From assembly GCA_963753325.1 (NCBI GenBank), contig CAVWBS010000003.1, positions 1,128,220 to 1,192,219 of the forward strand: a stretch of DNA of 64,000 bases. Direction: 5' to 3'. The DNA comes from an uncultured delta proteobacterium. GTDB lineage: Bacteria > Desulfobacterota > Binatia > UTPRO1. Shown piece after piece: positions 2,174-40,290 of this stretch. Under the pieces are notes generated by a model. The model searched no databases. It worked only from the letters and a program-made list of their open reading frames with translations, and was not told the origin of the DNA. Made by a program: the position numbers and the translations under genes. Position 1 is the stretch's first letter; the number at the start of each line of letters is the position of its first letter.

Positions 2174-3085
2174 ATGAGCGCCCTCACGACGGCGGCGCCC
2201 GCGGTGGCGGCGACGACACCCGCTCCCGAGCCGCGCTCGCTCGACGACGCGTTTCGCGAGTGCGAGCGCATCGCCCGCGCGCACTACGAGAACTTCACGC
2301 TCGGCTCGCGCTTGTTGCCGCGACCGCTGCGACGACACATCGCCGCCATCTACGCGTTCGCCCGCACCGCCGACGATCTCGCCGACGAGGAGCCGGATCC
2401 GGCCGCGCGCTCGCCGCGCTCGACGCCTGGGAGCGGGAGCTCGACGCCTGCTACGCCGGGCAGCCGCGCGCACCCGATCTTCGTCGCGCTCGCGGAGACG
2501 GTGCGCGACGTTCGGCATCCCGGTCGAGCCCTTCCGCGACCTGCTGGCCGCGTTCCGCGATGGACGTGCGGTTCGCCGGCTTCGCGACGTTCGACGATCT
2601 CACGTTCTACTGCGCACCACTCCGCCAACCCCGTCGGGCACCTGGTGCTGCATCTCTTCGGGCACGGCGACGCGGAGCGGCAGGCGCGCGCCGACGACAT
2701 CTGCACGGCGCTCCAGCTGACCAACTTCTGGCAGGATCTCGCCGTCGATCTCGGCAAAGGGCGCGTCTACCTGCCGCGTGAGGACATGGCGCGCTTCGGA
2801 TACGGCGCGGACGACCTCGCCCGGCGCGCGATCACTCCCGCGTTCCGTGCGCTGATGGAGTTCCAGTGCGCGCGCACGCGCGGGCTGTTCGAACGCGGGC
2901 TCGCGCTGGCGGACATGCTCGCGGGCCGCGAGGGGCGTGAGGTGCGGCTCTTCGCCGGTGGGGGACTCGCGATCCTCGAGCGCCTCGCCGCGGTCGGATA
3001 CGACGTGTTCACCGCGCGCCCGACGTTGTCGCGCTGGGCGAAGATCGCGCTGGTGGCGCGGACGCTCGTCGGAGTCGATCGGTGA
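2174..3085 (+). pseudogene. hpnC: Squalene synthase-like HpnC (hydroxysqualene synthase). The frame is broken about 5 times between 2400 and 2620.
   Basis: Starts at ATG 2174. Motifs are [31 protein letters not shown], then alternate-frame pieces [41 protein letters not shown], then [12 protein letters not shown] and [27 protein letters not shown]. It is first in the hpnC-D-E gene order. Confidence 0.75.
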
Positions 3086-4041
3086 CGGGCACCGCGAGCC
3101 TGCTGTCGAGCGCGGCGAACCGTCACGCGCCCGTCCTGCGGGCGGGGCCGCACCACGCATCGCCCCCGGGCGAGCCTGGCGGAACCGCCGCGGGCGGTCC
3201 GCTCGCCGCCGCGTACGCCGAGTGCGAGCGCATCGCGCGCGCCAGCTCGAGCAGCTTCACGGTCGCGTTCCGGCTCCTGCCGGCGGAGCGGCGCGGCGCG
3301 CTCGCGGCCCTGTACGCCTATTGCCGCATGGTCGACGACGCGGCGGACGAGAGCGCCGATCCGGCGGCGGCGCTCGCCGACTGGCGGGCGGAGCTGGGGC
3401 GCTTGCGCGACGGCGTGCCGATCCATCCCGTCGCCGTCGCGCTCGCGGACGCCGTGCGGCGGTTCGCGATTCCGACCGAGCATCTCGCCGAGATCCTCAC
3501 CGGCGTGGAGATGGACCTCGCGCCGTGCGCCTACGAGACCTTCGACGAGCTGCGCGGCTATTGCTACCACGTGGCGGCCGCGGTCGGCCTCGCGGCGCTG
3601 CCGATCTTCGGATGCCGCGACCTGCGCAGCCGGGTGTACGCGCAGGCGCTCGGCATCGCGCTCCAGCTCACCAACATCCTGCGCGACCTGGCCGAGGACG
3701 CCGAGCGCGGCCGCATCTATCTGCCGCGCGAGGACCTGCGACGGTTCGGCTATGGCGAGCGCGAGCTGTACACGCATGCGCGCAACGACGCGCTGCGCGC
3801 GCTGATCGCCTTCGAGGTCGAACGGGCGCGCGACTACTACCGGACGGCGCGTGCCAGCATCGCGGCGCGCGACCGACGTGCGCTCGTCGCCGCGGAAGGC
3901 ATGCGGCTGGTCTACCAGCGAGTGCTGGCGCGCATCGCCGCCGATCCCGACGCGGTGTTCGGACCGCGCATCGGCGTACCGGTGCACGAGAAGGCATTGT
4001 GCGTGCTGGCGGCCTGGCTGCGCAGCCGGAGCGTCCGTTGA
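3082..4041 (+). CDS. hpnD: Presqualene diphosphate synthase HpnD (squalene/phytoene synthase family).
   Basis: Intact 319-aa ORF with [35 protein letters not shown] and [25 protein letters not shown]. The GTG start overlaps the hpnC stop. Confidence 0.8.
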
Positions 4042-5419
4042 GCGACGCGATCGTGATCGGGGGCGGCTTCGCCGGTCTCGCGGCCGGCGTCGCGCTCGCC
4101 AACGACGGCGTGAGCGTCACCATCCTCGAGCGCCGGCCGGTGCTCGGCGGGCGCGCCTACTCCTACACCGACGCGACCACCGGCGAGGTCATCGACAACG
4201 GCCAACACGCGATGCTGGGCTGCTACCATCACCTCTTCCGCTTCCTCGATCGCATCGGTGCGACCGAGAAGCTCGCGATCCAGCCGGGTCTGCGCGTGGC
4301 CATGCTCGATCCGGAACGCGGCCGCGGCGTGATCGCGTGCCCGCGGCTGCCGAGTCCGCTGCACATGGCGGCGGGCGTCCTCGGCTACCGGCTGCTCGGT
4401 CTCGCCGACCGGGTCCGCGTCCTGATCGGCGGGTTGCGCCTGCTGGCCATGAAGCGGCGGCACGATCCGCGGCTCGCGCGCCTCACCGTCGACGACGCGC
4501 TCGATCTGCTCGGACAGCCCGAGACCACCCGACGCGCCTTCTGGCATCCGGTGGCGATCGCGACGCTCAACGAGACGCCGGCCCTCGCCTCCGCCGACCT
4601 CCTGGCCGAGGTCATGGTCCGGGCGTTTTTTTCCACCAGGGACGATGCCCGTTTCGTGCTCTCGCGGGTCGGGCTCTCGGAGCTCTACACCGACGACGCG
4701 CGGCGCTTCATCGAGGCGCGGGGCGGACGCGTCGAGACCAAGGCGCAGGTGGTCGGCATCGGCGTGCGCGGCGACGAGGTGTCGCACCTCGAGCTGCGTG
4801 ACGGTCGGCGGCTGACGGCGCTGGCCTACGTCAGCGCGGTGCCGCCGCAGGCGCTCTTTCCGCTGTTGCCGCTCGCCGTGCGGCGCGACGTTCCGGCCCT
4901 CGGCGCGATCGAGCGTCTCGCCAGCTCGCCGATCGTCTCGGTCCACGTGTGGTTCGATCGGCCGCTCCTCGACGACGACTTCGTCGGGTTCGTCGGCACG
5001 CGGACGCACTGGTGCTTCAATCGTGACAGGATCAGCGGGCGCGACCCGCGCGGAGGCAGCTATCTCACGTTCGTGATCTCGGGAGCGCGGGAGATGGTCG
5101 ACCTCGACGCCGATCGGATCGTCGCGGAGACGCTCGCGGACGCGCGCCGCCTCATCCGGGAGCGGCCGCGGCCACGGTGCGGCACACGCAGGTGGTCAAG
5201 GAGAAATTCGCGACGATGTCGCCGACGCTCGAGGCGGAGCAGCTCCGCCCCGCGGCCACGACACCGTTCCGCAATTTCCTTCTGGCGGGCGACTGGACCG
5301 CAACGGGTCTACCCGCCACGATCGAAAGCGCCGTCGCGAGCGGGCATCTCGCGGCGGAGCTCGCAGTTCGCATCGCGTCGCCATCGGAGCGGCGTGAGGA
5401 GGCACGGGCGGCAAGTTGA
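4038..5419 (+). pseudogene. hpnE: Hydroxysqualene dehydroxylase HpnE (FAD-dependent amine-oxidase fold). One frameshift near 5155.
   Basis: The TTG start overlaps the hpnD stop (TTGA). It has the dinucleotide-binding motif IVIGGGFAGLAAGVALA...ILERRPVLGGRA. The C-terminus, [11 protein letters not shown]...[24 protein letters not shown], is in a different frame ending at 5419. Confidence 0.8.
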
Positions 5420-5460
5420 GGGGACCACTCCGGTGGCAACGAACTTCTGAAGGGGGGCAC

Positions 5461-5967
5461 ATGAGCACAGAGACGCAAGAGACGGCGGTACGGTGGCACG
5501 GCAACGGGAAGACGAACGGCGCGCGGGGAGAGCGCTCCGGCGTCCTCGTTCACCGCATGGACATCGAGACGACGAAGCGGGTCGAGATCCGCGACCTCAC
5601 GGCGTTGGTGCAGGATGTGGTGCGCGGCGCCGGCGTCGATGCGGGGCTCGTCACGTTGAGCTCGATGCACACGACGACCGCCATCTTCGTGAACGAGCCG
5701 CAGACGGCGCTGCTCGACGACATCGAGCAGCTCCTCGAGCGGCTCGCGCCGCGCGGCGAGGAATGGAAGCACAACGATCCCCGCTACTCGGATTGCGACC
5801 GGCAGAACGCCGACGCGCACCTGCGTGCCATCGTGCTCGGCAGCAGCGCCACCCTGCAGGTCGCCGACGGCGATCTCGTCATGGGGCAGTGGCAGCGCAT
5901 CCTCATGGCCGAGCTGGACGGTCCGCGCACGCGTCAGCTCGTCCTGCAGATTCTCGCGGCTCGCTGA
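5461..5967 (+). CDS. YjbQ/UPF0047 family protein (secondary thiamine-phosphate synthase family).
   Basis: The ORF carries [13 protein letters not shown]...[26 protein letters not shown]...ELDGPR, which is typical of UPF0047. ATG at 5461 chosen as the start. Confidence 0.7.
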
Positions 5968-5974
5968 CCAATCG

Positions 5975-6008
5975 ACGGTCCGGCGCGCCCTCCATCGCGC
6001 CGGACCGT
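5975..6008. terminator. 13-bp GC-rich hairpin between the convergent yjbQ and asnS genes (possible bidirectional terminator).
   Basis: ACGGTCCGGCGCG, an 8-nt loop, then CGCGCCGGACCGT. There is no clear U-tract on either strand. Confidence 0.45.
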
Positions 6009-6023
6009 TGCCTCGCGCCGAGC

Positions 6024-7314
6024 CTACGGCGTCAGGCGCTCGAGCATGCGCGGGAACGGGATCGTCTCGCGTACGTGGTGCAGCCCGCAGAGCCACGCGA
6101 CCATGCGCTCGATGCCCATGCCGAACCCGGCGTGCGGGACGCCGCCGTAGCGCCGGAGATCCAGGTACCAGGCGAACGCCTCGCGCGGGAGATCGATGCG
6201 CGTCGATGCGCGCCTCGAGCGCGGCGAGATCGTCCTCGCGCTGACCGCCGCCGATGATCTCGCCGTAGCCCTCCGGCGCGAGGACGTCGACGCAGAGCGC
6301 GAGCCGGGGATCGGTGGGGTCGGGCTTCATGTAGAAGGCCTTGCTCGCGGCCGGGTAGCGGTGGACCATCACGGGACGATCGAAGCGTTGCGAGAGCACG
6401 GTCTCCTCGTCGCCGCCGAAGTCGTCGCCGAAGGTCATCGGCTTGCCTTCGCCCGTGAGGATCGCGAGGGCCTCCTCGTAGCGCAGGCGTGGAAACGGCT
6501 TCTGGACGCGCTCGAGCGGGACGAGGTCGCGCTCGAGCGCCACGAGCTCGCTCTTCCGCTCCTCGACGACCCGGCCCACGACCTCGACCAGAAAGTCCTC
6601 GGCGAGCGCCATGTCGTCGTCGAGGTCGGCGAAGGCAACCTCGGGCTCGATCATCCAGAACTCGGTCAGGTGGCGCCGCGTCTTCGACTTCTCGGCGCGG
6701 AACGTCGGGCCGAAGCAGTAGACCTTGCCGAACGCCATCGCGCCGGCCTCCATGTAGAGCTGGCCGCTCTGCGTCAGGTAGGCCGGCGCGCCGAAGTAGT
6801 CGACCGCGAAGAGCGTGGTGGTTCCCTCGCAGGCGGCGGGGGTGAAGATCGGCGCGTCGAGGAGCGTGAAGCCGCGGCGGTCGAAGTATTCGCGGCAGGC
6901 GCGCACGACGCCGGCGCGCACCCGCATGATGGCGTGCTGGCGCGCCGAGCGCAGCCAGAGATGGCGGTGGTCGAGGAGGAACGCGGGTCCGTGCTCCTTC
7001 GGCGTGATCGGATAGTCGACGGCCTCGGCGAGCAGCGTCAGGTCACGCACCGCGAGCTCATAGCCGAGCGGCGAGCGGGCGTCGGCGCGCACGGTGCCGG
7101 TCACCTCGACGGCCGACTCCTGTGTGAGCCGACCGGCGCGCTCGAACAGCTCCGCGGCGACGTCCTTCACGAACACGACGCACTGGATCGTCCCCGTGCC
7201 GTCGCGCAGGAGCAGGAAGTGGAGCTTGCCGCTCGAGCGTCGGTTGTACAGCCAGCCCCGCAACGTCACGTCGCTGCCCGCGTGGCTCGCGACGTCCTCG
7301 ACGTAGACGTGCAT
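6024..7314 (-). pseudogene. asnS: Asparagine--tRNA ligase. One frameshift near 6195-6200.
   Basis: Motifs [41 protein letters not shown] and [10 protein letters not shown]. The tail [36 protein letters not shown]...RLTP is in another frame and stops at TAG 6024-6026. Confidence 0.85.
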
Positions 7315-7375
7315 GCGTCCTCCAGGAAGCGCACGGATTGTGCGCACGGAAGGATCGGACTATAGCTGCGGGCGG

Positions 7376-7890
7376 GTGAGGAAACCACATCGCGGCGCGA
7401 GCGCGATCGGGGTCGTGCTCGCGGCCATCGTCATCGCCGGTGTGATCGGCGGGTGCGGCGCGCCAACGCGCAAGCCGCATCAGGATCGCTTTCTTCGACG
7501 AGGATGACCCGACGACGCTGGTCTCCGGCGACATGGACCAGGACGAGGCCGCGTGGCGGAAGGAGCTGGCGCACCAGCGCGCGGCAGCCCGACAAGCCCG
7601 ACGCCCTCCTCAAGGACGATCCACCGACCGGACCCGCGCAGGACGGGAACCGCGCCCGCCACGACGCGCCCCCGAAAGACGAGGGGGTGTCCCAGAAGGA
7701 CGACGCGCGCGATCCCTACGCCCGCATCGACGACGATTTCGACGCCAACGGGGACGTCGAGAAGCCGCCGCCGACCACGTTCTGGGGCAAGGTACAGGCC
7801 GCCGCGGAGAGCGTCGGGCGCGCCAGTTTCGCCGCGATGACCGTCGTCGTGACCCTCGGGATGATGGTCGCGCCCTATCTCCTGCTCTGA
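7376..7890 (+). pseudogene. Hypothetical lipoprotein-like protein with a disordered middle and a C-terminal hydrophobic helix. The frame is broken about twice.
   Basis: GTG at 7376, then a signal/lipobox-like AIGVVLAAIVIAGVIGGCG. The acidic, Pro-rich sequence continues across two other frames and ends in FAAMTVVVTLGMMVAPYLLL. Confidence 0.3.
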
Positions 7891-8750
7891 CGCAGGCGTC
7901 GCACGCACGCAGCCGCGTGTAGGCGCGTTGCAAGCGCCGCGTCGTCGGGCCCGGCGCGCCGTTGCCGATGCGGCGTCGCGCGACGCGCACGACCGGCAGG
8001 ACCTCGATCGTCGACGCGGTGAGGAAGACCTCGTCGGCGGCGAGCGACTCGTCGCGCGTGATCGCCGCCTCGCGAGCGGCATGCGCGCCGCGCCGCGCGA
8101 TCGTCGCGAGCACGTCGCCGCGTGACGCCGGGGAGGATGCCGTGCAGCGGCGGCGTCACGAGCGCGCCGCGCGCGGACGATGAAGACGTTGCTGGTCGTG
8201 CCCTCGAGCACGGTGTCGTCGGCGCCGAGATAGATCGCTTCCCAGGCGCCGCGCCGCGCGCGCGATCATCTTGCCGAGCACCGCGGGAAGGTAGTGCAGG
8301 GTCTTGTGGCTCGGCAGCGTCGCCGTGACCAGCCGGAACGGGAAGAAGCAGATCGCGACGCCGCGTTCCCGCTGCGCCGCGCGAGCGCGCGCGTCGAGCG
8401 GCGTCGCGATCAGCAACGTCGTCGGCCGCAGCCCGCGCGCGGGCACGATGCCGAGCGGCGCCCGCGCCGCGCGAGACCGTCAGGCGAACGGCCGCGTCGG
8501 TCGTCGAGCAGGCCGTTGGCGCGCAGCAGCCGCCGCGATGCGCGGCCGCCAGTACGCGGCGTCGCGCCTCGAACGGAATGCGAAGACGCGCGGCCGAGCG
8601 GCGAGACGCGCCAGATGCTGCGCCAGAGCCGAACGGCCGGCCGCGATAGGTGCGGACCGTCTCGAAGAGGCCGTCGCCGTAGAGAAAGCCGCGATCGAGC
8701 GCGGAGATCCGCGCCGTCGGCGCGCGGACGAGCCGGTCGTTCAGGAGCAC
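7875..8750 (-). pseudogene. pabC: Class IV aminotransferase / aminodeoxychorismate lyase-like. Multiple frameshifts.
   Basis: [33 protein letters not shown] and DEVFLTASTIEVLPVVRV lie in three different minus-strand frames. The gene sits directly downstream of pabB. Confidence 0.65.
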
Positions 8751-33692: not shown

Positions 33693-34007
33693 ATGAAGCA
33701 GACCAAGCTGAATGCCGCCCTCGAGGCGACCCTACAGGAGCTGAAGAGCGTGGCACAGGCGCTCGGCTTCGAGGTGCGAGAGGAGGAGTTGCTGCGCGAG
33801 GTCGGATACCGGCCGCGCAGCGGCGTCTGCCGGGTCGGCAGCACGCGCGTCATCCTCCTCGATCGCCGCGCCAGTGGGGAGGAGCGGATCGACGCGCTCT
33901 GCGCCGTGCTCGCGACGCAGGATCTCGAACGGGTGTTCCTCTCGCCGGCGTTGCGGATGCGTCTCGCTCCCCGCTCGGCGGCGGGCGCCGAGTCCCGCCC
34001 GGGATGA
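33693..34007 (+). CDS. Hypothetical protein (104 aa), translationally coupled to fur.
   Basis: Intact ORF with an ATG start. Its stop overlaps the fur ATG (ATGA at 34004-34007). I recognise no family. Confidence 0.45.
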   Translation: MKQTKLNAALEATLQELKSVAQALGFEVREEELLREVGYRPRSGVCRVGSTRVILLDRRASGEERIDALCAVLATQDLERVFLSPALRMRLAPRSAAGAESRPG

Positions 34008-34520: not shown

Positions 34521-35390
34521 TCAGCGGGTGTGCTGGATCAGCAGGGTCGGCAGGCGGTCCGGCCACTTCACGGTCGCGACCCGCGTCGCCGGAGCGAGCC
34601 CGGGACGCGGATCGCTCGCCGGGAGACCTCCGGCCCTGACGCGCGCCACCGCGGCGTCGCAGTCGCCGACCGTATAGGCGATTCCCCACGGCCGCTCGCC
34701 GCGCTCGCCGGCGCCGCCGGCGAGCGGTGCCACCAGCTCCAGCGTGACGCCGCCGAGACGAAGGCCGACGTTGACGGTGCCGCGCTCGGGGAACTCGCGT
34801 CGCCAGCGTTCGGGAAGCGCGAACGCGTCGCGCCAGAGGCGGAGCGCGGCGACGAGATCGTCGCTGAACAGCACGAGGTGATCCACGGCGGCGACCGCGG
34901 CCGCCGGATCGCCGCGCCAGGGCGCCGGAGGGATGGTCCCGTCTTCGTGATGGACCGCAAAGACGTTCACCCCGCGCGTGTGCTCGCGCGCGATGGGTAG
35001 GAGGCGGGCGGTGCGTGCGCCGCCGTCGGGCGCCGTCGTGGTGACCCGGGTGGGCTCCCCGACCGGCAGCGCGGCGGCGCGCAGGGCGCGTGCCGTCTCC
35101 CCGAGATCGTCGCTGCCGAGCGCCAGCGCGAGCAGCCCCTCGGGCCTGCGCTCCAGGAACGCCGTCAGGGCGGCCGCCGGCGGAGACTCCGGCGGCGTGC
35201 CGTCGAGCGCGAGGAGCTCGAGGTAGCAGTTGGCGAGCGCGAAGACGACGTTGCGCGTGCCGAGCGTCGCGTGCGCGCCGCGCGTCGAGGGATCGCGGCC
35301 GAGGAGGACGCGGTAGTCGCGCTCCGCGGCCGCCAGATCGCGCACGGCGATGACCAGGTGGTCGACGCGCGCGAACGGGGGAGCGGGCAT
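34521..35390 (-). CDS. Two-domain VOC (glyoxalase/bleomycin resistance/dioxygenase) family protein.
   Basis: Intact 289-aa ORF with the repeats VDHLVIAVRDL and VDHLVLFSDDL. Confidence 0.6.
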   Translation of the reverse strand: MPAPPFARVDHLVIAVRDLAAAERDYRVLLGRDPSTRGAHATLGTRNVVFALANCYLELLALDGTPPESPPAAALTAFLERRPEGLLALALGSDDLGETARALRAAALPVGEPTRVTTTAPDGGARTARLLPIAREHTRGVNVFAVHHEDGTIPPAPWRGDPAAAVAAVDHLVLFSDDLVAALRLWRDAFALPERWRREFPERGTVNVGLRLGGVTLELVAPLAGGAGERGERPWGIAYTVGDCDAAVARVRAGGLPASDPRPGLAPATRVATVKWPDRLPTLLIQHTR

Positions 35391-35439: not shown

Positions 35440-35496
35440 TTGACAGCCCGCGCGGCGGTCCACTAGAAGTCTCCAACGAAAATGAAAATCATTCTC
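35440..35496 (+). promoter_or_regulatory. Candidate sigma-70 promoter (TTGACA-18 nt-TAGAAG) followed by a Fur box that overlaps the apbE ATG.
   Basis: TTGACA at 35440-35445 and TAGAAG at 35464-35469. GAAAATGAAAATCATTCTC at 35478-35496 matches 16 of 19 positions of the Fur consensus GATAATGATAATCATTATC. The stretch is AT-rich in a roughly 70% GC context. Confidence 0.6.
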
Positions 35497-36597
35497 AATT
35501 GGTTCGCGCGGTGGGCGCCCGTGCGCTTGCGTCGCGCCGCAGCGATCACGGCCTGGGCGGCGGTTGCGCTCGGCGCGGCGCGAGCGGGCGGTGCGGCCGG
35601 GCCTCCGCCGGGCGCGTCCGAGCCGCCGACGATCGAGCGCGCCGAGCTGGTCATGGGCACGGTGGCCCGCGTCGCCCTGCCGCCGCGGCTCGCGACTGCT
35701 CGCACGTTCGAGGCCGCGTTTGCCGCTCTGCGCGAGGTCGACGCGACCATGAGCCTCTATCGCGAGGACAGCGAGCTGGTGCGGGTGAACGCCCGCGCCG
35801 CGGACCACCCCGAGCCCGTCGACGCGCCGCTCTTCGCGCTGCTCGTGCGCGCCCGGGAGCTCGGCATCGAGAGCGACGGCGCCTTCGACGTCACCGTGCT
35901 GCCGCTGCTCCGGCTGTGGGGCGCGTATCCCGAGCTGGGGTATCTCGGCGCGGGCAGCCGCACCGCCGTCGGCATCGAGGGGCTCCGTCTCGACGCGGCC
36001 GCACGCACCGTCGGCTTCGCGCGGCCCGGCATGGGCCTCGATCTCGGCGGCATCGCCAAGGGATGCGCGCTCGACCGCGCCCGCGCGGCGCTGGCGACCC
36101 GCGGCGTCGATCGGGCGCGGCTCGATCTCGGTGGAGATCTCGCATTCGTCGGCGCCGGGCCGCAGGGCGTCTGGCGCGCGGCCGTTCGCGATCCCGACGC
36201 TCCCGACCGGCCGCTCGGCGTGCTCGTGGTGGGGGCGGATGCGAGCCTCTCGACGTCCGGCAACTACGAACGCGATTTCGCGCGCGAGGGGTGGCGCGCG
36301 CGGAGCCACCTGTACGACCCACGCACCGGACGACCGGTCACGCGCGACGTCGCGGTCACCGTATGGTCACCCGACGCGACCGCCGCGGATGCGCTGTCGA
36401 CGGCGCTGGTCGTCCTGGGCCGCGAGCACGGCGCCGCGTTGCTGGCGCGCGAGCGCGGCGCGGGCGCGCTCTTCGCGGAGCGCCGTCCGGGTGAGACCGC
36501 CCGACGCATCAGCTTCGCGGGACGTCCGCCGCTCGGCTGGATGCCGAGCGGCGGCGCCGCGCCGACATCCGCCACGGATGAAGGAGACGCTCGATGA
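35482..36597 (+). CDS. apbE: FAD:protein FMN transferase (ApbE family), exported.
   Basis: Intact 371-aa ORF with an N-terminal signal-like RLRRAAAITAWAAVALGAARA, plus MGT..RV, GAFDVTV, LDLGGIAKG and STSGNYER motifs. Confidence 0.85.
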   Translation: MKIILNWFARWAPVRLRRAAAITAWAAVALGAARAGGAAGPPPGASEPPTIERAELVMGTVARVALPPRLATARTFEAAFAALREVDATMSLYREDSELVRVNARAADHPEPVDAPLFALLVRARELGIESDGAFDVTVLPLLRLWGAYPELGYLGAGSRTAVGIEGLRLDAAARTVGFARPGMGLDLGGIAKGCALDRARAALATRGVDRARLDLGGDLAFVGAGPQGVWRAAVRDPDAPDRPLGVLVVGADASLSTSGNYERDFAREGWRARSHLYDPRTGRPVTRDVAVTVWSPDATAADALSTALVVLGREHGAALLARERGAGALFAERRPGETARRISFAGRPPLGWMPSGGAAPTSATDEGDAR

Positions 36598-38057
36598 CCG
36601 GCCTGCCGCGCCTACCCCTCCTGCTGCTCGCCGCCGCGCTGCTCACGCCCGCAGGGCCCGTGCCGGCGCACGCCGAGGCCGATCCACGCATCCGCGCGTA
36701 CGAGCGGCAACTCGAGCAGATGCAGCAGCAGATGGACCAGTTGCGCGCCGAGCTCCGTGCGCTGGAGAAGGAGCGCGGCACCACGCCCAAGGCCGGGCCG
36801 TCGACGGCCACGAAGGAGGCGGCGCCGCCGGCCGCGGCGACTGCGGCCCCGGCGGCGGCCGCCGCCGAGCAGGACCGCAAGATCGATGTGCTCGCGCACG
36901 AGGTCGAAGGCCTGAAGAGCAAGATCGTGCTGCCCGAGGGCAAGGCGCTGAAGAGCGCCTACGGCTTCGGACCGGCGGCCTCGAAGATCTACCAGGCCGA
37001 GCGCGGTCTCTCGATCGGCGGCTACGGCGAGTTCACCTACGAGAACCTGGTGAACGATCAGCATGGCGCGAAGGACCGCTTCGACCTCGAGCGCTTCGTG
37101 CTCTACACCGGCTACAAGTTCACCGACCGCATCCTGCTCAACTCGGAGATCGAGTTCGAGCACGCGACGACCGAGGACACGCCGAGCTCCGATGACGGCT
37201 CGGTGTCGGTCGAATTCGCCAATCTCGACTTCTTCCTGTGGAAGCCCCTGAACGTCCGCGTGGGCCTGTTGCTCGTGCCGATGGGCTTCCTCAACGAGAT
37301 GCACGAGCCGCCTTTCTACTACGGGGTCTTCCGGCCCGAGGTGGAGCGCGAGAAGATCATTCCCAGCACCTGGGCGGAGGGCGGCTTCGGCTTCTTCGGG
37401 ACGCTCGCGCCCGGGCTCGACTATCGCGCGTACCTGCTGACGTCGCTGAATGCCAAGGGCTTCGCCCCGGACGGGCTCGGTGAGGCGCGGCAGAAGGGGA
37501 AGAACGCGTTCGCCGACGATTTCTCGGGCACCGTGCGCCTCGACTACGCGCCGTTCCCGGGCGCCGTGATCGGGGCGTCCTTCTGGGCCGGCGACTCGGG
37601 TCAGAACCAGACGTTCGACGGCGAGAAACCCGACGTGTTCACGCTCATCTGGGAGGCGCACGCCCAGTTGAACTACCGCGGCGTCCACTTCCGTACCCTC
37701 GGCGCGTTCGACAACGTCAGCGACGCCGCCACCGTGAGCCGCGATCTGGGCGAGACGATCGCCGAGCACTCGTTCGGCTACTACGCCGAAGTCGCGTACA
37801 ACGTCCTGCCATGGATCTTCCCCGACAGCGATCAGTCGTTCGAGCCGTTCTTCCGCTACGAGATCTACGACACGCAGGACGGCATCCCGAAGGGCTTCGC
37901 CCGCGTCCCCGGTCAGAACGTCCAGCTCTACAGTTTCGGCGCGTCGTACAAGCCGCATCCCCAGGTCGTCTTGAAGATGGAGTACCGCGACTTCGACGCG
38001 GGCTCGAAGGCGCCGATTCCGGACGAGTTCGACCTCGGAGCCGGCTTCATCTTCTGA
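36594..38057 (+). CDS. Putative outer-membrane beta-barrel (porin-like) protein with an N-terminal coiled coil.
   Basis: Signal peptide ending AHA-EA, a coiled coil (RAYERQLEQMQQQMDQLRAELRALEKE), an Ala/Pro linker, then alternating amphipathic strands. The C-terminus is ...DLGAGFIF, with a terminal Phe. The ATGA overlaps apbE. Confidence 0.6.
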   Translation: MTGLPRLPLLLLAAALLTPAGPVPAHAEADPRIRAYERQLEQMQQQMDQLRAELRALEKERGTTPKAGPSTATKEAAPPAAATAAPAAAAAEQDRKIDVLAHEVEGLKSKIVLPEGKALKSAYGFGPAASKIYQAERGLSIGGYGEFTYENLVNDQHGAKDRFDLERFVLYTGYKFTDRILLNSEIEFEHATTEDTPSSDDGSVSVEFANLDFFLWKPLNVRVGLLLVPMGFLNEMHEPPFYYGVFRPEVEREKIIPSTWAEGGFGFFGTLAPGLDYRAYLLTSLNAKGFAPDGLGEARQKGKNAFADDFSGTVRLDYAPFPGAVIGASFWAGDSGQNQTFDGEKPDVFTLIWEAHAQLNYRGVHFRTLGAFDNVSDAATVSRDLGETIAEHSFGYYAEVAYNVLPWIFPDSDQSFEPFFRYEIYDTQDGIPKGFARVPGQNVQLYSFGASYKPHPQVVLKMEYRDFDAGSKAPIPDEFDLGAGFIF

Positions 38058-38632
38058 TGCTCCGCTGGCTGTGTTTCATCGCGCTCGCGGTCCTGACGCC
38101 GGCGCCCGCGCCCGCCGTCGTCTTCCATGCCAAGGACGAGGCGCTGGCGCTCGCGTTTCCCGGTGCCGATCGCGTGGACGACAAGGCCGTCATCCTCACC
38201 GACGCGCAGAAACAGGAGATCGAGAAGCGCGCGCACGCGCCGGTCGAGTCGTCCCTCTGGACCGTCTACACGGGCTGGCGCGGCACGGAGCTGCTCGGCT
38301 ACGCGGTGATCGACACCCACGACGTCCGCACGCTTCCCGAGGCGGTGATGGTCGTGCTCTCTCCGGCGGGCGAGGTGCGGCGCGCCGAAGTCCTGGCGTT
38401 CTACGAGCCGCCCGAGTACGCGCCGACCGAGCGCTGGGCGAAGCAGTTCGAGGGCCGCAGGCTGGACGACGACCTGAAGCTCGGCGCAGGCATCCAGGGC
38501 ATCACGGGGGCCACGTTGACCGCGACCGCGATGACCGCCGGCGTCCGCCGGGCGCTCGCCCTCTACGGCGTGCTGCGCGACGCAGGGGTGCTGGCGAAAC
38601 CGTGCACGGAGGCCGCATGCGGTTCACGGTGA
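38057..38632 (+). CDS. Exported FMN-binding-domain protein (NqrC/RnfG-like FMN_bind) with an ApbE flavinylation motif.
   Basis: Signal peptide MLRWLCFIALAVLTPAPAPA. Acceptor motif GIQGITGATLTA is encoded at 38498-38521. The start overlaps the upstream stop (TGATG). Confidence 0.75.
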   Translation: MLRWLCFIALAVLTPAPAPAVVFHAKDEALALAFPGADRVDDKAVILTDAQKQEIEKRAHAPVESSLWTVYTGWRGTELLGYAVIDTHDVRTLPEAVMVVLSPAGEVRRAEVLAFYEPPEYAPTERWAKQFEGRRLDDDLKLGAGIQGITGATLTATAMTAGVRRALALYGVLRDAGVLAKPCTEAACGSR

Positions 38633-39144
38633 CGCCGGATTGGCGTGACAATCGCCTGCTGAAGCTCGTCCTCGCGTGGTTCCTCATCTACGTCGCGCTC
38701 TTCTGGACGACGAACGGGTTGCTCTACTTCGCGAAGATGGGTCTCACCCCGCAGTCGGTGGTGGCGTATTACCGCGGCGACGAGGAGCGATTCCTCCAAC
38801 CGCGCAGCTATCAAGGCATGCTCGAGATCGCGCACTTCCACCTCTTCGCGATGGGCATCCTGGTGCTCACGATGACGCATCTGCTGCTGTTCGTGCCCAT
38901 CACCACACGGACGAAGGCGTGGATCGTCTGCCTGTCGTTCGCGAGCGCCGTGGGCGACGAGGCCGCCGGATGGCTCGTCCGCTTCGTCGCGCCGGCGTTT
39001 GCCTATCTCAAGATCGCGTCCTTCCTCACCTTGCAGGCGACGTTGGCGTTCATGGTGATCGCGGTCACGTGGGCGCTCGCGACGGCGCAGCGGAACGCAT
39101 ACCGCGATGGCGGCGACGATCCCGAGGACGACGAGGACGCGTGA
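38617..39144 (+). CDS. 4-TM membrane protein with conserved-looking His residues in TM2 and an acidic C-terminal tail.
   Basis: 175 aa with four hydrophobic helices. TM2 reads EIAHFHLFAMGILVLTMTH, with two His residues 13 apart. The ORF overlaps the FMN_bind gene by 16 nt. Confidence 0.55.
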   Translation: MRFTVTPDWRDNRLLKLVLAWFLIYVALFWTTNGLLYFAKMGLTPQSVVAYYRGDEERFLQPRSYQGMLEIAHFHLFAMGILVLTMTHLLLFVPITTRTKAWIVCLSFASAVGDEAAGWLVRFVAPAFAYLKIASFLTLQATLAFMVIAVTWALATAQRNAYRDGGDDPEDDEDA

Positions 39145-39198: not shown

Positions 39199-40290
39199 GT
39201 GACCGCACCGGCCGCGCGGCGTCTGCCCCGCCAGCTCGACGTCCTGCAAGTCTATCGCGGCATCGCTGCGCTGCTCGTCGTCCTCTACCACCTGACGTGG
39301 TGGGGTGGCGGACGCGCCTATCTGCAATTGCCGGACTGGACGCCGGGACTTCCCCCGGGCACGCCGGCAGGGCTCTTCCGCTTCGGCCACAGCGGCGTCG
39401 ACTTCTTCTTCACCTTGAGCGGGTTCGTCATGGTGTGGGGGTATGGCGCGTACGCCGGCGACATCCGGCGGCTCGGCCGGTTCTTCTGGTCGCGCTTCAC
39501 GCGCATCTATCCCACCTACTGGGCGATCCTCGCCCTCACCATGGCGTATCTCCTCACCCACCACGGGGTGAACGACGGGGCGCTCGGCCACGACGCCGTC
39601 GTGCGCGGAATCCTGCTGGTCGGCAATGGCCCGTGGCAGATCCCGCCGTCGGGAACGCTGCCCTTCGAGCTGGCGCTCTACGTGTTCTTCGGCCTGCTCT
39701 TCGTCGTCGGCTGGATCCCGTTCGTCCTGGCGGCGCTCGCCTGGTGCGGGATGATCGTCGCGCAGTGGTACGGCTGGACGCACATGGCGAGCTACCCGAC
39801 GTGGCTCTCGACGTCGATGCTCGAGTTCTTCCTCGGCAGCGCCGGTGCGCTGTTCATCCGCCGCGTGCAGCCGCGGGTGTCGGGCTGGTGGCTCGCCGCG
39901 GCGGCGGTGCTGTGCATGGCGGTCGGCGTCTTCGACTCGGTGCAGTCGGCGCTCGACCAGCACCACAACATCCGGAACTTCGCCGTGCCCTACCTCCTGC
40001 TGATCGTCGTGGGCGCGGCCTACGACCTCGGCGGCCCGCGCCGCTATCCGCGTCCGCTGATGCTGATCGGCGACGCGTCCTATTCCATCTACCTCAGTCA
40101 TTTCTACCTGATCTGGGAGATCAACGGCTGGGCATACCGGCGTGACCTCGCCGGCCGGATCGGCCTCGACGGACAGAAGACGGTCGTCCTGGTCGCGGTC
40201 GTCGCGGTCGGTGTCGGGTGCTGGGCCTTGATCGAGCGGCCGCTGCTGCGCTGGTCCGGGCGCCGGGGGTCCCGGGTGACGGGCTCGTGA
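39199..40290 (+). CDS. Acyltransferase family 3 (OafA-like) membrane protein.
   Basis: LQVYRGIAALLVVLYH, GHSGVDFFFTLSGFVM and RIYPTYW, with multiple TM segments. 363 aa, GTG start. Confidence 0.75.
   Translation: MTAPAARRLPRQLDVLQVYRGIAALLVVLYHLTWWGGGRAYLQLPDWTPGLPPGTPAGLFRFGHSGVDFFFTLSGFVMVWGYGAYAGDIRRLGRFFWSRFTRIYPTYWAILALTMAYLLTHHGVNDGALGHDAVVRGILLVGNGPWQIPPSGTLPFELALYVFFGLLFVVGWIPFVLAALAWCGMIVAQWYGWTHMASYPTWLSTSMLEFFLGSAGALFIRRVQPRVSGWWLAAAAVLCMAVGVFDSVQSALDQHHNIRNFAVPYLLLIVVGAAYDLGGPRRYPRPLMLIGDASYSIYLSHFYLIWEINGWAYRRDLAGRIGLDGQKTVVLVAVVAVGVGCWALIERPLLRWSGRRGSRVTGS

Follow-up and report, generated by a model that had tools for sequence, protein, structure and literature searches.

A widely conserved operon with a predicted Fur operator encodes an ApbE/FMN_bind flavinylation pair, an Aq_1264_TM membrane protein and a porin, and may serve iron acquisition

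What might a bacterium do with four overlapping genes for a flavin transferase, its likely acceptor protein, a small membrane protein and an outer-membrane barrel, placed together behind a candidate binding site for the iron regulator Fur? The question is raised by a locus in a 64,000-nucleotide (nt) stretch of DNA, hereafter the window, from an uncultured delta proteobacterium (GTDB lineage Desulfobacterota; Binatia; UTPRO1; assembly GCA_963753325.1, contig CAVWBS010000003.1, positions 1,128,220 to 1,192,219). A preliminary description of the window, made from its letters alone, had read four open reading frames (ORFs) as one co-translated unit and proposed a flavin-based iron reductase or uptake route. 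All four ORFs and their overlapping junctions are present (Table 1), and the four protein identifications hold: an ApbE-family FAD:protein FMN (flavin mononucleotide) transferase, an outer-membrane porin-like protein, a secreted FMN_bind protein and an inner-membrane protein with four transmembrane (TM) helices (the 4-TM protein) of the family Aq_1264_TM (PF27139). The operon is a real and widely conserved unit. As to its purpose, we lean, with modest conviction, towards a Fur-repressed system in which an ApbE-matured periplasmic flavoprotein, a dimeric inner-membrane partner and a dedicated porin reduce and acquire iron.

Conservation of gene order carries the first part of this answer. One genome per species was scanned for relatives of the 4-TM protein, and the best 80 of 579 were analysed as loci. 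In 79 of these 80 loci an FMN_bind homologue immediately precedes the 4-TM gene, a porin gene is found in 71, and ApbE is encoded in 49 (33 times downstream, 14 times upstream and twice on the opposite strand). The four genes thus co-occur across genomes, and chance adjacency is excluded by the conserved synteny. A few loci have no porin gene, so that the porin is not obligatory, and clustering of the ORFs in the 80 loci returned no further widely shared neighbour. Carriers comprise Candidatus Binatia (up to 91% identity), Entotheonella, Myxococcota, Nitrococcus, Methyloversatilis, the Methylococcales genera Methylobacter, Methylovulum, Methylomicrobium and Methyloglobulus, and others. Four distant loci with about 30% identity (L086, L088, L090 and L091) keep the order porin, FMN_bind, 4-TM. 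The first of them encodes an 8-TM tandem form fused to ApbE and the third a 4-TM protein fused to ApbE, while in L091 the 4-TM domain is fused to DtxR-C and FeoA domains and the gene is followed by fur.

The second part of the answer concerns regulation. The perfect TTGACA hexamer and the 16/19 Fur-box match previously seen ahead of the operon are confirmed, and the box is the sole match with three or fewer mismatches across the window (71% G+C); a control scan of 100 shuffled sequences gave none. It occupies about +1 to +20 of the predicted transcript, so that a predicted Fur box lies in the promoter region, as in operators of the Fur regulon. No canonical -10 hexamer was found by consensus scan, only a conserved -10-like TAnAA element being visible. 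In 10 close Binatia-type loci, cTTGACA, the -10-like element and the Fur box remain in register while the surrounding sequence drifts. Boxes of this type are the delta-proteobacterial Fur boxes described upstream of feoAB (Rodionov 2004, PMC545781).

To place this operator in a wider frame, we counted matches of at least 14/19 in the roughly 480 nt ahead of the first cassette gene for the 72 loci with enough upstream sequence; the expectation came from how densely such matches occur in other parts of these loci. This footprinting revealed a Fur box ahead of the cassette in 45 of the 72 loci, against 1.7 expected; several further loci carry 13/19 palindromes in the equivalent position. In many loci, across phyla, the box is the single best site in about 14 kb and stands immediately ahead of the cassette. 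In L086, a distant locus of low G+C, TTGACA-N17-TATTTT is followed at once by GAAAATGAAAATTATTTTC, a Fur box. A fur homologue within 7 kb of the cassette (22/80 loci) adds to the footprinting in supporting Fur control.

In the window itself, fur lies about 1 kb upstream of the cassette, as the preliminary description had it. Its product carries an HHDHLIC motif and two CxxC motifs, and its best NCBIfam matches are Fur rather than PerR or Zur. We therefore rejected a PerR operator, given that Fur is the best-scoring identity of the regulator and that the box is of the feoAB type. The operon is predicted from its sequence to be Fur-repressed and switched on under iron starvation. As a separate observation, a long perfect palindrome (ATGATATTATGGATATT/AAATATCCATAATATC) occupies the Fur-box position in L088, a marine Thermodesulfobacteriota-type locus of 29% G+C; it lies upstream of the porin gene, and a different regulator may act there.

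The operator also bears on where ApbE begins. Its annotated ATG sits inside the Fur box, where relatives keep it within the operator, and an in-frame stop follows it in one close relative (L011). An in-frame GTG, preceded by GGTGGG, would leave a normal signal peptide. Because the ATG belongs to the operator and meets a stop in that relative, the GTG is a plausible and possibly the true start; the ATG, if used, would yield a nearly leaderless mRNA. The ApbE identity of the earlier ORF call thus stands, whereas its start codon is doubtful.

ApbE and the FMN_bind protein were assessed with the operational definition of ApbE-dependent extracytosolic flavinylation systems by Meheust 2021 (PMC8238504). 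ApbE scores 216 bits against PF02424 (cut-off 25.6), and the substrate protein reaches 28.6 bits against PF04205, above the gathering score of 22. Signal peptides are legible in both sequences, ending ..RLRRAAAITAWAAVALGAARA/GG in ApbE and MLRWLCFIALAVLTPAPAPA/VV (..APAPA/VV) in the FMN_bind protein, in keeping with the earlier view of two exported proteins. The acceptor motif GITGATLT (amino acids (aa) 148-155) contains TGAT, an instance of [S/T]GA[S/T], and its Thr153 is the predicted FMN acceptor. The acceptor Thr is kept in 78 of 79 FMN_bind homologues, with a conserved core G-[AS]-T-L-[ST], while the homologue in L088 has a degenerate motif, SNST. We infer that Thr153 is flavinylated by ApbE.

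The membrane partner was less readily placed. Pfam family PF27139, named after Aquifex aq_1264, is precomputed on all 120 listed homologues of the window protein (62-91% identity), and through these assignments the window protein belongs to it; in a Pfam set without the PF27139 model, it matched no family at E ≤ 0.01. The family counts 545 relatives at E ≤ 0.001 among 50%-identity representatives and 3,114 at E ≤ 1e-5 in a 90%-identity collection. Our literature search found no paper mentioning aq_1264 or PF27139 and nothing on the family's function. AlphaFold2 returned a four-helix membrane model of the 175-aa protein with a predicted local distance difference test score (pLDDT) of 92, for which Foldseek found nothing below E=0.7 in the PDB and thus no fold match. 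MAPEG-like Foldseek matches were dismissed as generic four-helix bundles, and a weak NCBIfam match to cytochrome b561 (E=0.013) gained no support from the fold search. Nor did 37 diverse family members match, at E ≤ 1, any published flavinylation-associated membrane module tested, namely NapH-like PF12801, MsrQ-like PF01794, PepSY-like PF03929/PF16357, DsbD PF02683, NqrB/RnfD-like and DUF4405.

Gene fusions and tandem copies inform on the architecture of this protein. Its domain is fused to ApbE in four homologues (P0245, P0246, P0248 and P0286), each with an extra TM helix, and elsewhere C-terminally to DtxR-C/FeoA; one branch (P0259/P0394, 269 aa) has a C-terminal PilZ domain, which suggests control by cyclic di-GMP in some lineages. 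Since the C-terminal DtxR-C/FeoA and PilZ domains are cytoplasmic and the extra helix precedes a periplasmic ApbE, the predicted topology is N-in, C-in. Near-invariant residues are Y52, G54, E70, H73, H75 and H88, and the topology would put the family's YYxGxE loop and the E70/H73/H75 end of TM helix 2 (TM2) on the periplasmic side, with H88 towards the cytoplasm. We split 17 8-TM members into halves and aligned them. The N-terminal halves retain H73 in 17/17 and E70 in 15/17 and have all lost H75 and H88, whereas the C-terminal halves retain H75 and H88 in 17/17 and have lost H73 in 14/17 and E70 in about half. This complementary loss implies a dimer with an inter-subunit site to which one subunit would give E70/H73 and the other H75, with H88 deeper; fusion to a DtxR dimerisation domain agrees with a dimer.

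At the outer membrane, the preliminary description had proposed a barrel with a coiled coil, and structure prediction bears this out. The 487-aa protein has a signal peptide (..PAHA/EAD) and a C-terminal Phe. Its AlphaFold2 model, built with 34 homologues (pLDDT 80 for the whole model and for most of the barrel above 85), consists of periplasmic helices 31-62 and 88-110 followed by 16 β-strands, the strand number of the OprO/OprP porin fold, with a conserved YGxGPAASKxY segment linking coiled coil and barrel. Foldseek matched it to OmpU, OmpF, OmpC, OmpK36 and the stalked OmpM1 (E about 1e-12, target TM-score about 0.7). By sequence, no Pfam or NCBIfam model passes its threshold, PF07396 (OprO/OprP) is absent from the matches at E ≤ 0.01, and a profile search against the PDB gave coiled-coil noise and no solved relative; homologue P0191 carries PF07396 in precomputed annotation. 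DUF3570 was rejected as the identity of the barrel, which has no Pfam match and no [S/T]GA[S/T] motif. Invariant residues form a run on one strand (N183-E185-E187-E189-H190) and a pair in the long loop after strand 5 (H237-E238), a hint at cation or metal selectivity.

The company that cassette and porin keep in relatives speaks for iron. Imelysin (PF09375) genes lie downstream in Binatia and Entotheonella loci; L014 has a full set of imelysin, di-haem oxidoreductase (DHOR, PF06537), imelysin and HTTM genes, and imelysin/DHOR-type genes also follow in L011, L013, L015, L019, L020, L033 and L044. The last of these loci has four distinct clusters of Fur boxes in 14 kb. Operons that pair imelysin with a peroxidase are under Fur regulation and have been implicated in the uptake of iron (PMC3143127). 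Nine Methylococcales loci have a di-haem cytochrome c peroxidase (CCP)/MauG gene between porin and FMN_bind or just downstream; in L039, a gene for a PEP-CTERM-like protein follows it.

Searching plasmid records for the porin family by tblastn disclosed three further arrangements in cultured bacteria. A Ralstonia solanacearum megaplasmid encodes CCP, porin and FMN_bind; the porin is 30% identical to that of the window, and the match is conserved in 131 Ralstonia plasmid records. The 13.3-kb Ralstonia locus contains no Aq_1264_TM gene and no strong Fur box, and our literature search found no paper on its peroxidase/FMN-binding arrangement. In Bradyrhizobium sp. ISRA436, porin, FMN_bind and ApbE genes are accompanied by that of a 139-aa membrane protein with two helices, two His on each, and a YYxGxEE motif that recurs in the 4-TM family; this protein could be a distant or permuted 4-TM relative with all four haem-type ligands in one chain. 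A Prevotella nigrescens plasmid record combines porin, imelysin and DHOR, and its locus has no FMN_bind gene. As the porin accompanies such differing modules, its family seems to go generally with periplasmic iron-redox modules. Further support for a link to iron comes from the DtxR-C/FeoA fusion followed by fur, from the downstream imelysin-DHOR genes and from the Prevotella porin beside imelysin and DHOR.

How might the parts work together? With iron sufficient, Fur would sit on the box just downstream of the promoter and block transcription, as the conserved operator suggests. Upon derepression, periplasmic ApbE would attach FMN covalently to Thr153 of the FMN_bind protein, as family and motif predict. 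This flavoprotein would be a stoichiometric partner of the 4-TM protein, since their genes are adjacent in 79/80 loci and share a 16-nt overlap here. The 4-TM dimer would present its inter-subunit site (Glu70/His73 with His75 of the other subunit, His88 lying deeper in the membrane) at the periplasmic end of TM2 and, as a new type of b-haem or quinol-linked module in the membrane, would most likely pass electrons on to the flavin. Fe(III) species would come in through the dedicated 16-stranded porin, whose coiled coil may hold the module beneath the outer membrane, and be reduced by the flavoprotein; uptake of the Fe(II) would fall either to a transporter encoded outside the cassette or to the 4-TM dimer. 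Of the iron-linked envelope module put forward earlier, the conserved unit, the predicted Fur control and the iron context stand; its ferric reductase activity and envelope-spanning complex are what we infer, as are haem binding, the substrate, the way the electrons flow and the selectivity of the porin.

Several observations weigh against such a reductive system. The cassette has no recognisable Fe2+ permease (FeoB, FTR1 or VIT1) and no recognisable cytosolic NAD(P)H-binding module, and about a third of the loci have no strong Fur box by simple scan. The conserved His of the 4-TM protein are confined to one helix, H88 of the tandem form has no partner, a misfit with the classical two-haem stack, and E70/H73/H75 resembles a 2-His-1-carboxylate metal site as much as haem ligands. 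The 4-TM model has no structural match to cytochromes, and the protein has no Pfam match to known modules. Finally, Ralstonia porin and FMN_bind occur with a di-haem peroxidase and no 4-TM protein, and a peroxidase is inserted into the cassette in some Methylococcales; a peroxidase could therefore be the flavoprotein's partner.

The role of the 4-TM protein is where the evidence divides, and the data fit an electron entry point and an Fe2+ permease about equally. A bis-His b-haem is supported by the four His of the Bradyrhizobium substitute and by the need of FMN_bind systems for electron input, a 2-His-1-carboxylate Fe2+ site by the Glu and the transporter-like regulatory fusions. On the permease account, which we hold to be possible but rather doubtful as a whole, E70/H73/H75 would capture Fe2+ made by the flavoprotein, H88 would relay it inwards, and re-reduction of the flavin would fall to a component from outside the cassette. 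This differs from the reductive reading in the role of the 4-TM protein only, is not fully exclusive of it, and follows the logic of FMN_bind with P19/FTR1, whose clusters likewise have no dedicated electron-input module (PMC8238504). The geometry suits it, with one half supplying E70 and H73 and the other H75 to a 2-His-1-carboxylate-like set and with H88 deeper on the same helix, as do the C-terminal fusions to metal-sensing DtxR-C/FeoA and to PilZ, typical transporter regulators, and the finding of no NAD-binding-domain fusions among the 4-TM matches examined. It sits less well with the few conserved polar residues on the other helices, the protein's lack of similarity to known transporters, a strict 1:1 adjacency to FMN_bind reminiscent of NqrC/RnfG-type redox partnerships, and the di-haem-like four-His pattern of the Bradyrhizobium substitute.

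The peroxidase genes noted above prompt another explanation, which we consider improbable, namely that flavoprotein and 4-TM protein feed periplasmic di-haem peroxidases (CCP/MauG or DHOR) in oxidative EfeUOB-like handling of iron or in peroxide handling, in place of a ferric reductase. Imelysins are nearly always tied to EfeB-like peroxidases (PMC3143127), DHOR and imelysin genes lie downstream in Binatia, and the nine Methylococcales loci and the Ralstonia order CCP-porin-FMN_bind point the same way. Most loci, the window included, nevertheless have no peroxidase gene in or beside the cassette, and both regulator and operator are of the Fur type rather than PerR or OxyR. Di-haem peroxidases, besides, usually take their electrons from cytochrome c or cupredoxin donors. 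A conduit for dissimilatory respiration on external electron acceptors is highly improbable: in Listeria and other bacteria, extracellular electron transfer does run through flavinylated FMN_bind proteins (PMC8238504) and the cassette has an outer-membrane component, but the regulator is Fur instead of a respiratory one, most carriers, methanotrophs and Binatia among them, are aerobes, a 16-strand porin is unable to house a redox protein, and there are no multihaem cytochromes or multi-flavinylated proteins.

The cassette with its preferred reductive role is of a kind already known, the ApbE/FMN_bind extracytosolic electron-transfer module linked to iron assimilation (PMC8238504, PMC11334425); ApbE/FMN_bind modules have been tied to assimilatory iron reduction (PMC8238504). 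New here are an uncharacterised membrane-partner family unlike published modules and a dedicated outer-membrane porin. Closest in plan are the PepSY-like (FoxB/VciB-type)/DUF2271/ApbE clusters (PMC8238504), also Gram-negative and Fur-repressed, in which an ApbE-matured periplasmic flavoprotein is paired with a small membrane protein; a part in assimilatory reduction of iron has been proposed for them, and some are linked to an outer-membrane transporter. Their substrate domain, however, is DUF2271 instead of FMN_bind and their outer-membrane component a TonB-dependent receptor instead of a diffusion-type 16-strand porin, while the membrane partner here is a four-helix Aq_1264_TM protein with its His on one helix and no PF03929 or PF16357. 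The FMN_bind clusters with P19/FTR1 (Meheust 2021, PMC8238504) similarly join an iron-acquisition membrane component to no obvious electron-input module, but they are mostly Gram-positive and have no porin, whereas our cassette has neither P19 (PF10634) nor FTR1 (PF03239). Searches for an FTR1/EfeU permease with a P19 or EfeO partner gave no Pfam match in the window cassette; EfeO-type M75 imelysin and DHOR occur downstream only, and in some relatives only.

DUF4405/FezC cytochromes (Huang 2024, PMC11334425) are likewise small His-bearing membrane proteins found via apbE co-localisation. FezC was modelled as a homodimer, and the group was proposed to transfer electrons to flavinylated proteins and to serve iron redox cycling (PMC11334425). 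There is no sequence relationship. A single DUF4405 chain has six TM helices with four central His, and haem binding has been shown for DUF4405/FezC proteins, whereas for the 4-TM protein it is a prediction. NqrC/RnfG share the FMN_bind fold and an ApbE-flavinylated Thr, and the window protein has weak NCBIfam similarity to RnfG, with scores far below cut-offs. An Nqr/Rnf fragment was rejected, the other subunits (NqrB/RnfD, NqrD/E) being missing from the window and the related loci. The preliminary description had recognised no FTR1/P19, PepSY or Nqr/Rnf partner, and Pfam and module searches of the cassette were indeed negative. Our literature search found no description of the combination, in agreement with its earlier reading as an undescribed system: the 4-TM protein falls outside the five transmembrane classes of Meheust 2021 and DUF4405 of Huang 2024.

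As for the porin, OprO/OprP and the general porins OmpF, OmpC and OmpU share its predicted 16-strand barrel, and NCBI annotates the Ralstonia homologue as OprO/OprP family. Unlike OprO/OprP, the window porin has a long N-terminal coiled coil, no PF07396, and Glu/His-rich invariants (N183, E185, E187, E189, H190, H237, E238) with no Arg ladder. A predicted Fur-regulated porin, 'psp', was reported from Geobacter metallireducens and Desulfuromonas, with an Aquifex aeolicus homologue; it is preceded by Fur boxes, is weakly similar to phosphate-selective porins and was speculated to import ferrous iron (Rodionov 2004, PMC545781). The window porin probably belongs to this family; the FMN_bind, 4-TM and ApbE partners are not described in that paper.

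Turning to the flanks, fur appears to be transcribed together with a small conserved 104-aa protein, because the ORF of the latter overlaps the fur start codon via ATGA and has homologues in the equivalent position in 10 related loci. Between fur and the cassette, on the opposite strand, is a glyoxalase/VOC gene of two domains, an arrangement kept in the closest Binatia loci (L006, L007, L009-L012 and L015) and not beyond. Downstream, an Acyl_transf_3 membrane acyltransferase gene begins 55 nt past the 4-TM stop. As no intrinsic terminator was found by scan 3' of the 4-TM gene, the acyltransferase may share the cassette transcript in the window genome; it was rejected as a cassette member, not being conserved next to the cassette in relatives.

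Table 1 Positions of the cassette, its regulatory elements and its neighbours in the window, and of related arrangements in other loci (numbered within each locus).
Feature	Position	Strand	Basis or remark
-35 hexamer TTGACA	35440..35445	+	direct sequence reading
Fur box GAAAATGAAAATCATTCTC	35478..35496	+	consensus scan, 16/19
ApbE-family FAD:protein FMN transferase gene	35482..36597	+	PF02424 E=7e-64
Annotated ApbE start (ATG)	35482	+	doubtful
In-frame GTG	35521	+	possible ApbE start
ApbE/porin junction	36594-36597	+	ATGA overlap
Outer-membrane porin-like protein gene	36594..38057	+	AlphaFold2 16 strands; Foldseek OmpU/OmpF/OmpC
Porin coiled coil	36684-36923	+	predicted
Porin barrel	37008-38051	+	predicted
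Porin/FMN_bind junction	38055-38059	+	TGATG
Secreted FMN_bind protein gene	38057..38632	+	PF04205 E=2e-6
Acceptor motif GITGATLT	38498-38521	+	
Predicted FMN acceptor Thr153	38513-38515	+	
FMN_bind/4-TM junction	38617-38632	+	16-nt overlap
4-TM inner-membrane protein gene, Aq_1264_TM (PF27139)	38617..39144	+	homologue annotation
TM2 residues E70, H73, H75, H88	38824, 38833, 38839, 38878	+	
104-aa ORF	33693-34007	+	no Pfam match
fur-family regulator gene, 166 aa	34004..34504	+	PF01475 E=4e-35
Glyoxalase/VOC gene	34521-35390	-	two domains
Acyltransferase gene	39199-40290	+	Acyl_transf_3
L088 palindrome	~4040-4075		at Fur-box position
L014 imelysin, DHOR, imelysin, HTTM	3042-8537		
L039 CCP/MauG	4425-5750		
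L064 CCP/MauG	5126-6328		
L046, L049, L055, L060, L069, L073, L080 CCP/MauG			
L092 Ralstonia solanacearum megaplasmid CP084739.1	4527-7885		CCP, porin, FMN_bind
L095 Bradyrhizobium sp. ISRA436 plasmid	3548-7009		porin, FMN_bind, ApbE, 139-aa membrane protein
L094 Prevotella nigrescens plasmid record NZ_CP082843.1	3923-8491		porin, imelysin, DHOR

Extracytosolic flavinylation is common, and thousands of genomes hold ApbE/FMN_bind genes that lack an assigned membrane partner or function. The cassette would add a flavinylation class with a large family (at least 3,100 protein clusters at 90% identity) spread over several phyla, with an unusually clear regulatory signal in Fur and with a dedicated porin, a component absent from published flavinylation systems. 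It would connect three little-understood modules under iron regulation, namely the FMN_bind proteins, the 'psp' porin and the operons of imelysin and di-haem peroxidase, and its cultured carriers in Methylococcales, together with the variants in Ralstonia and Bradyrhizobium, make these ideas directly testable. For aerobic environmental bacteria, methanotrophs among them, it is also a candidate route to reductive iron acquisition that does not depend on TonB. In a bolder form, which we advance tentatively and rate below an even chance, Aq_1264_TM would be a new class of dimeric inner-membrane redox or metal protein with an inter-subunit haem or 2-His-1-carboxylate iron site, working in a TonB-independent trans-envelope machine for reductive iron uptake with the covalently flavinylated flavoprotein and a coiled-coil-tethered, cation-selective porin. 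If this is true, such a machine would serve Binatia, Myxococcota, methanotrophs, Entotheonella and many uncultured lineages.

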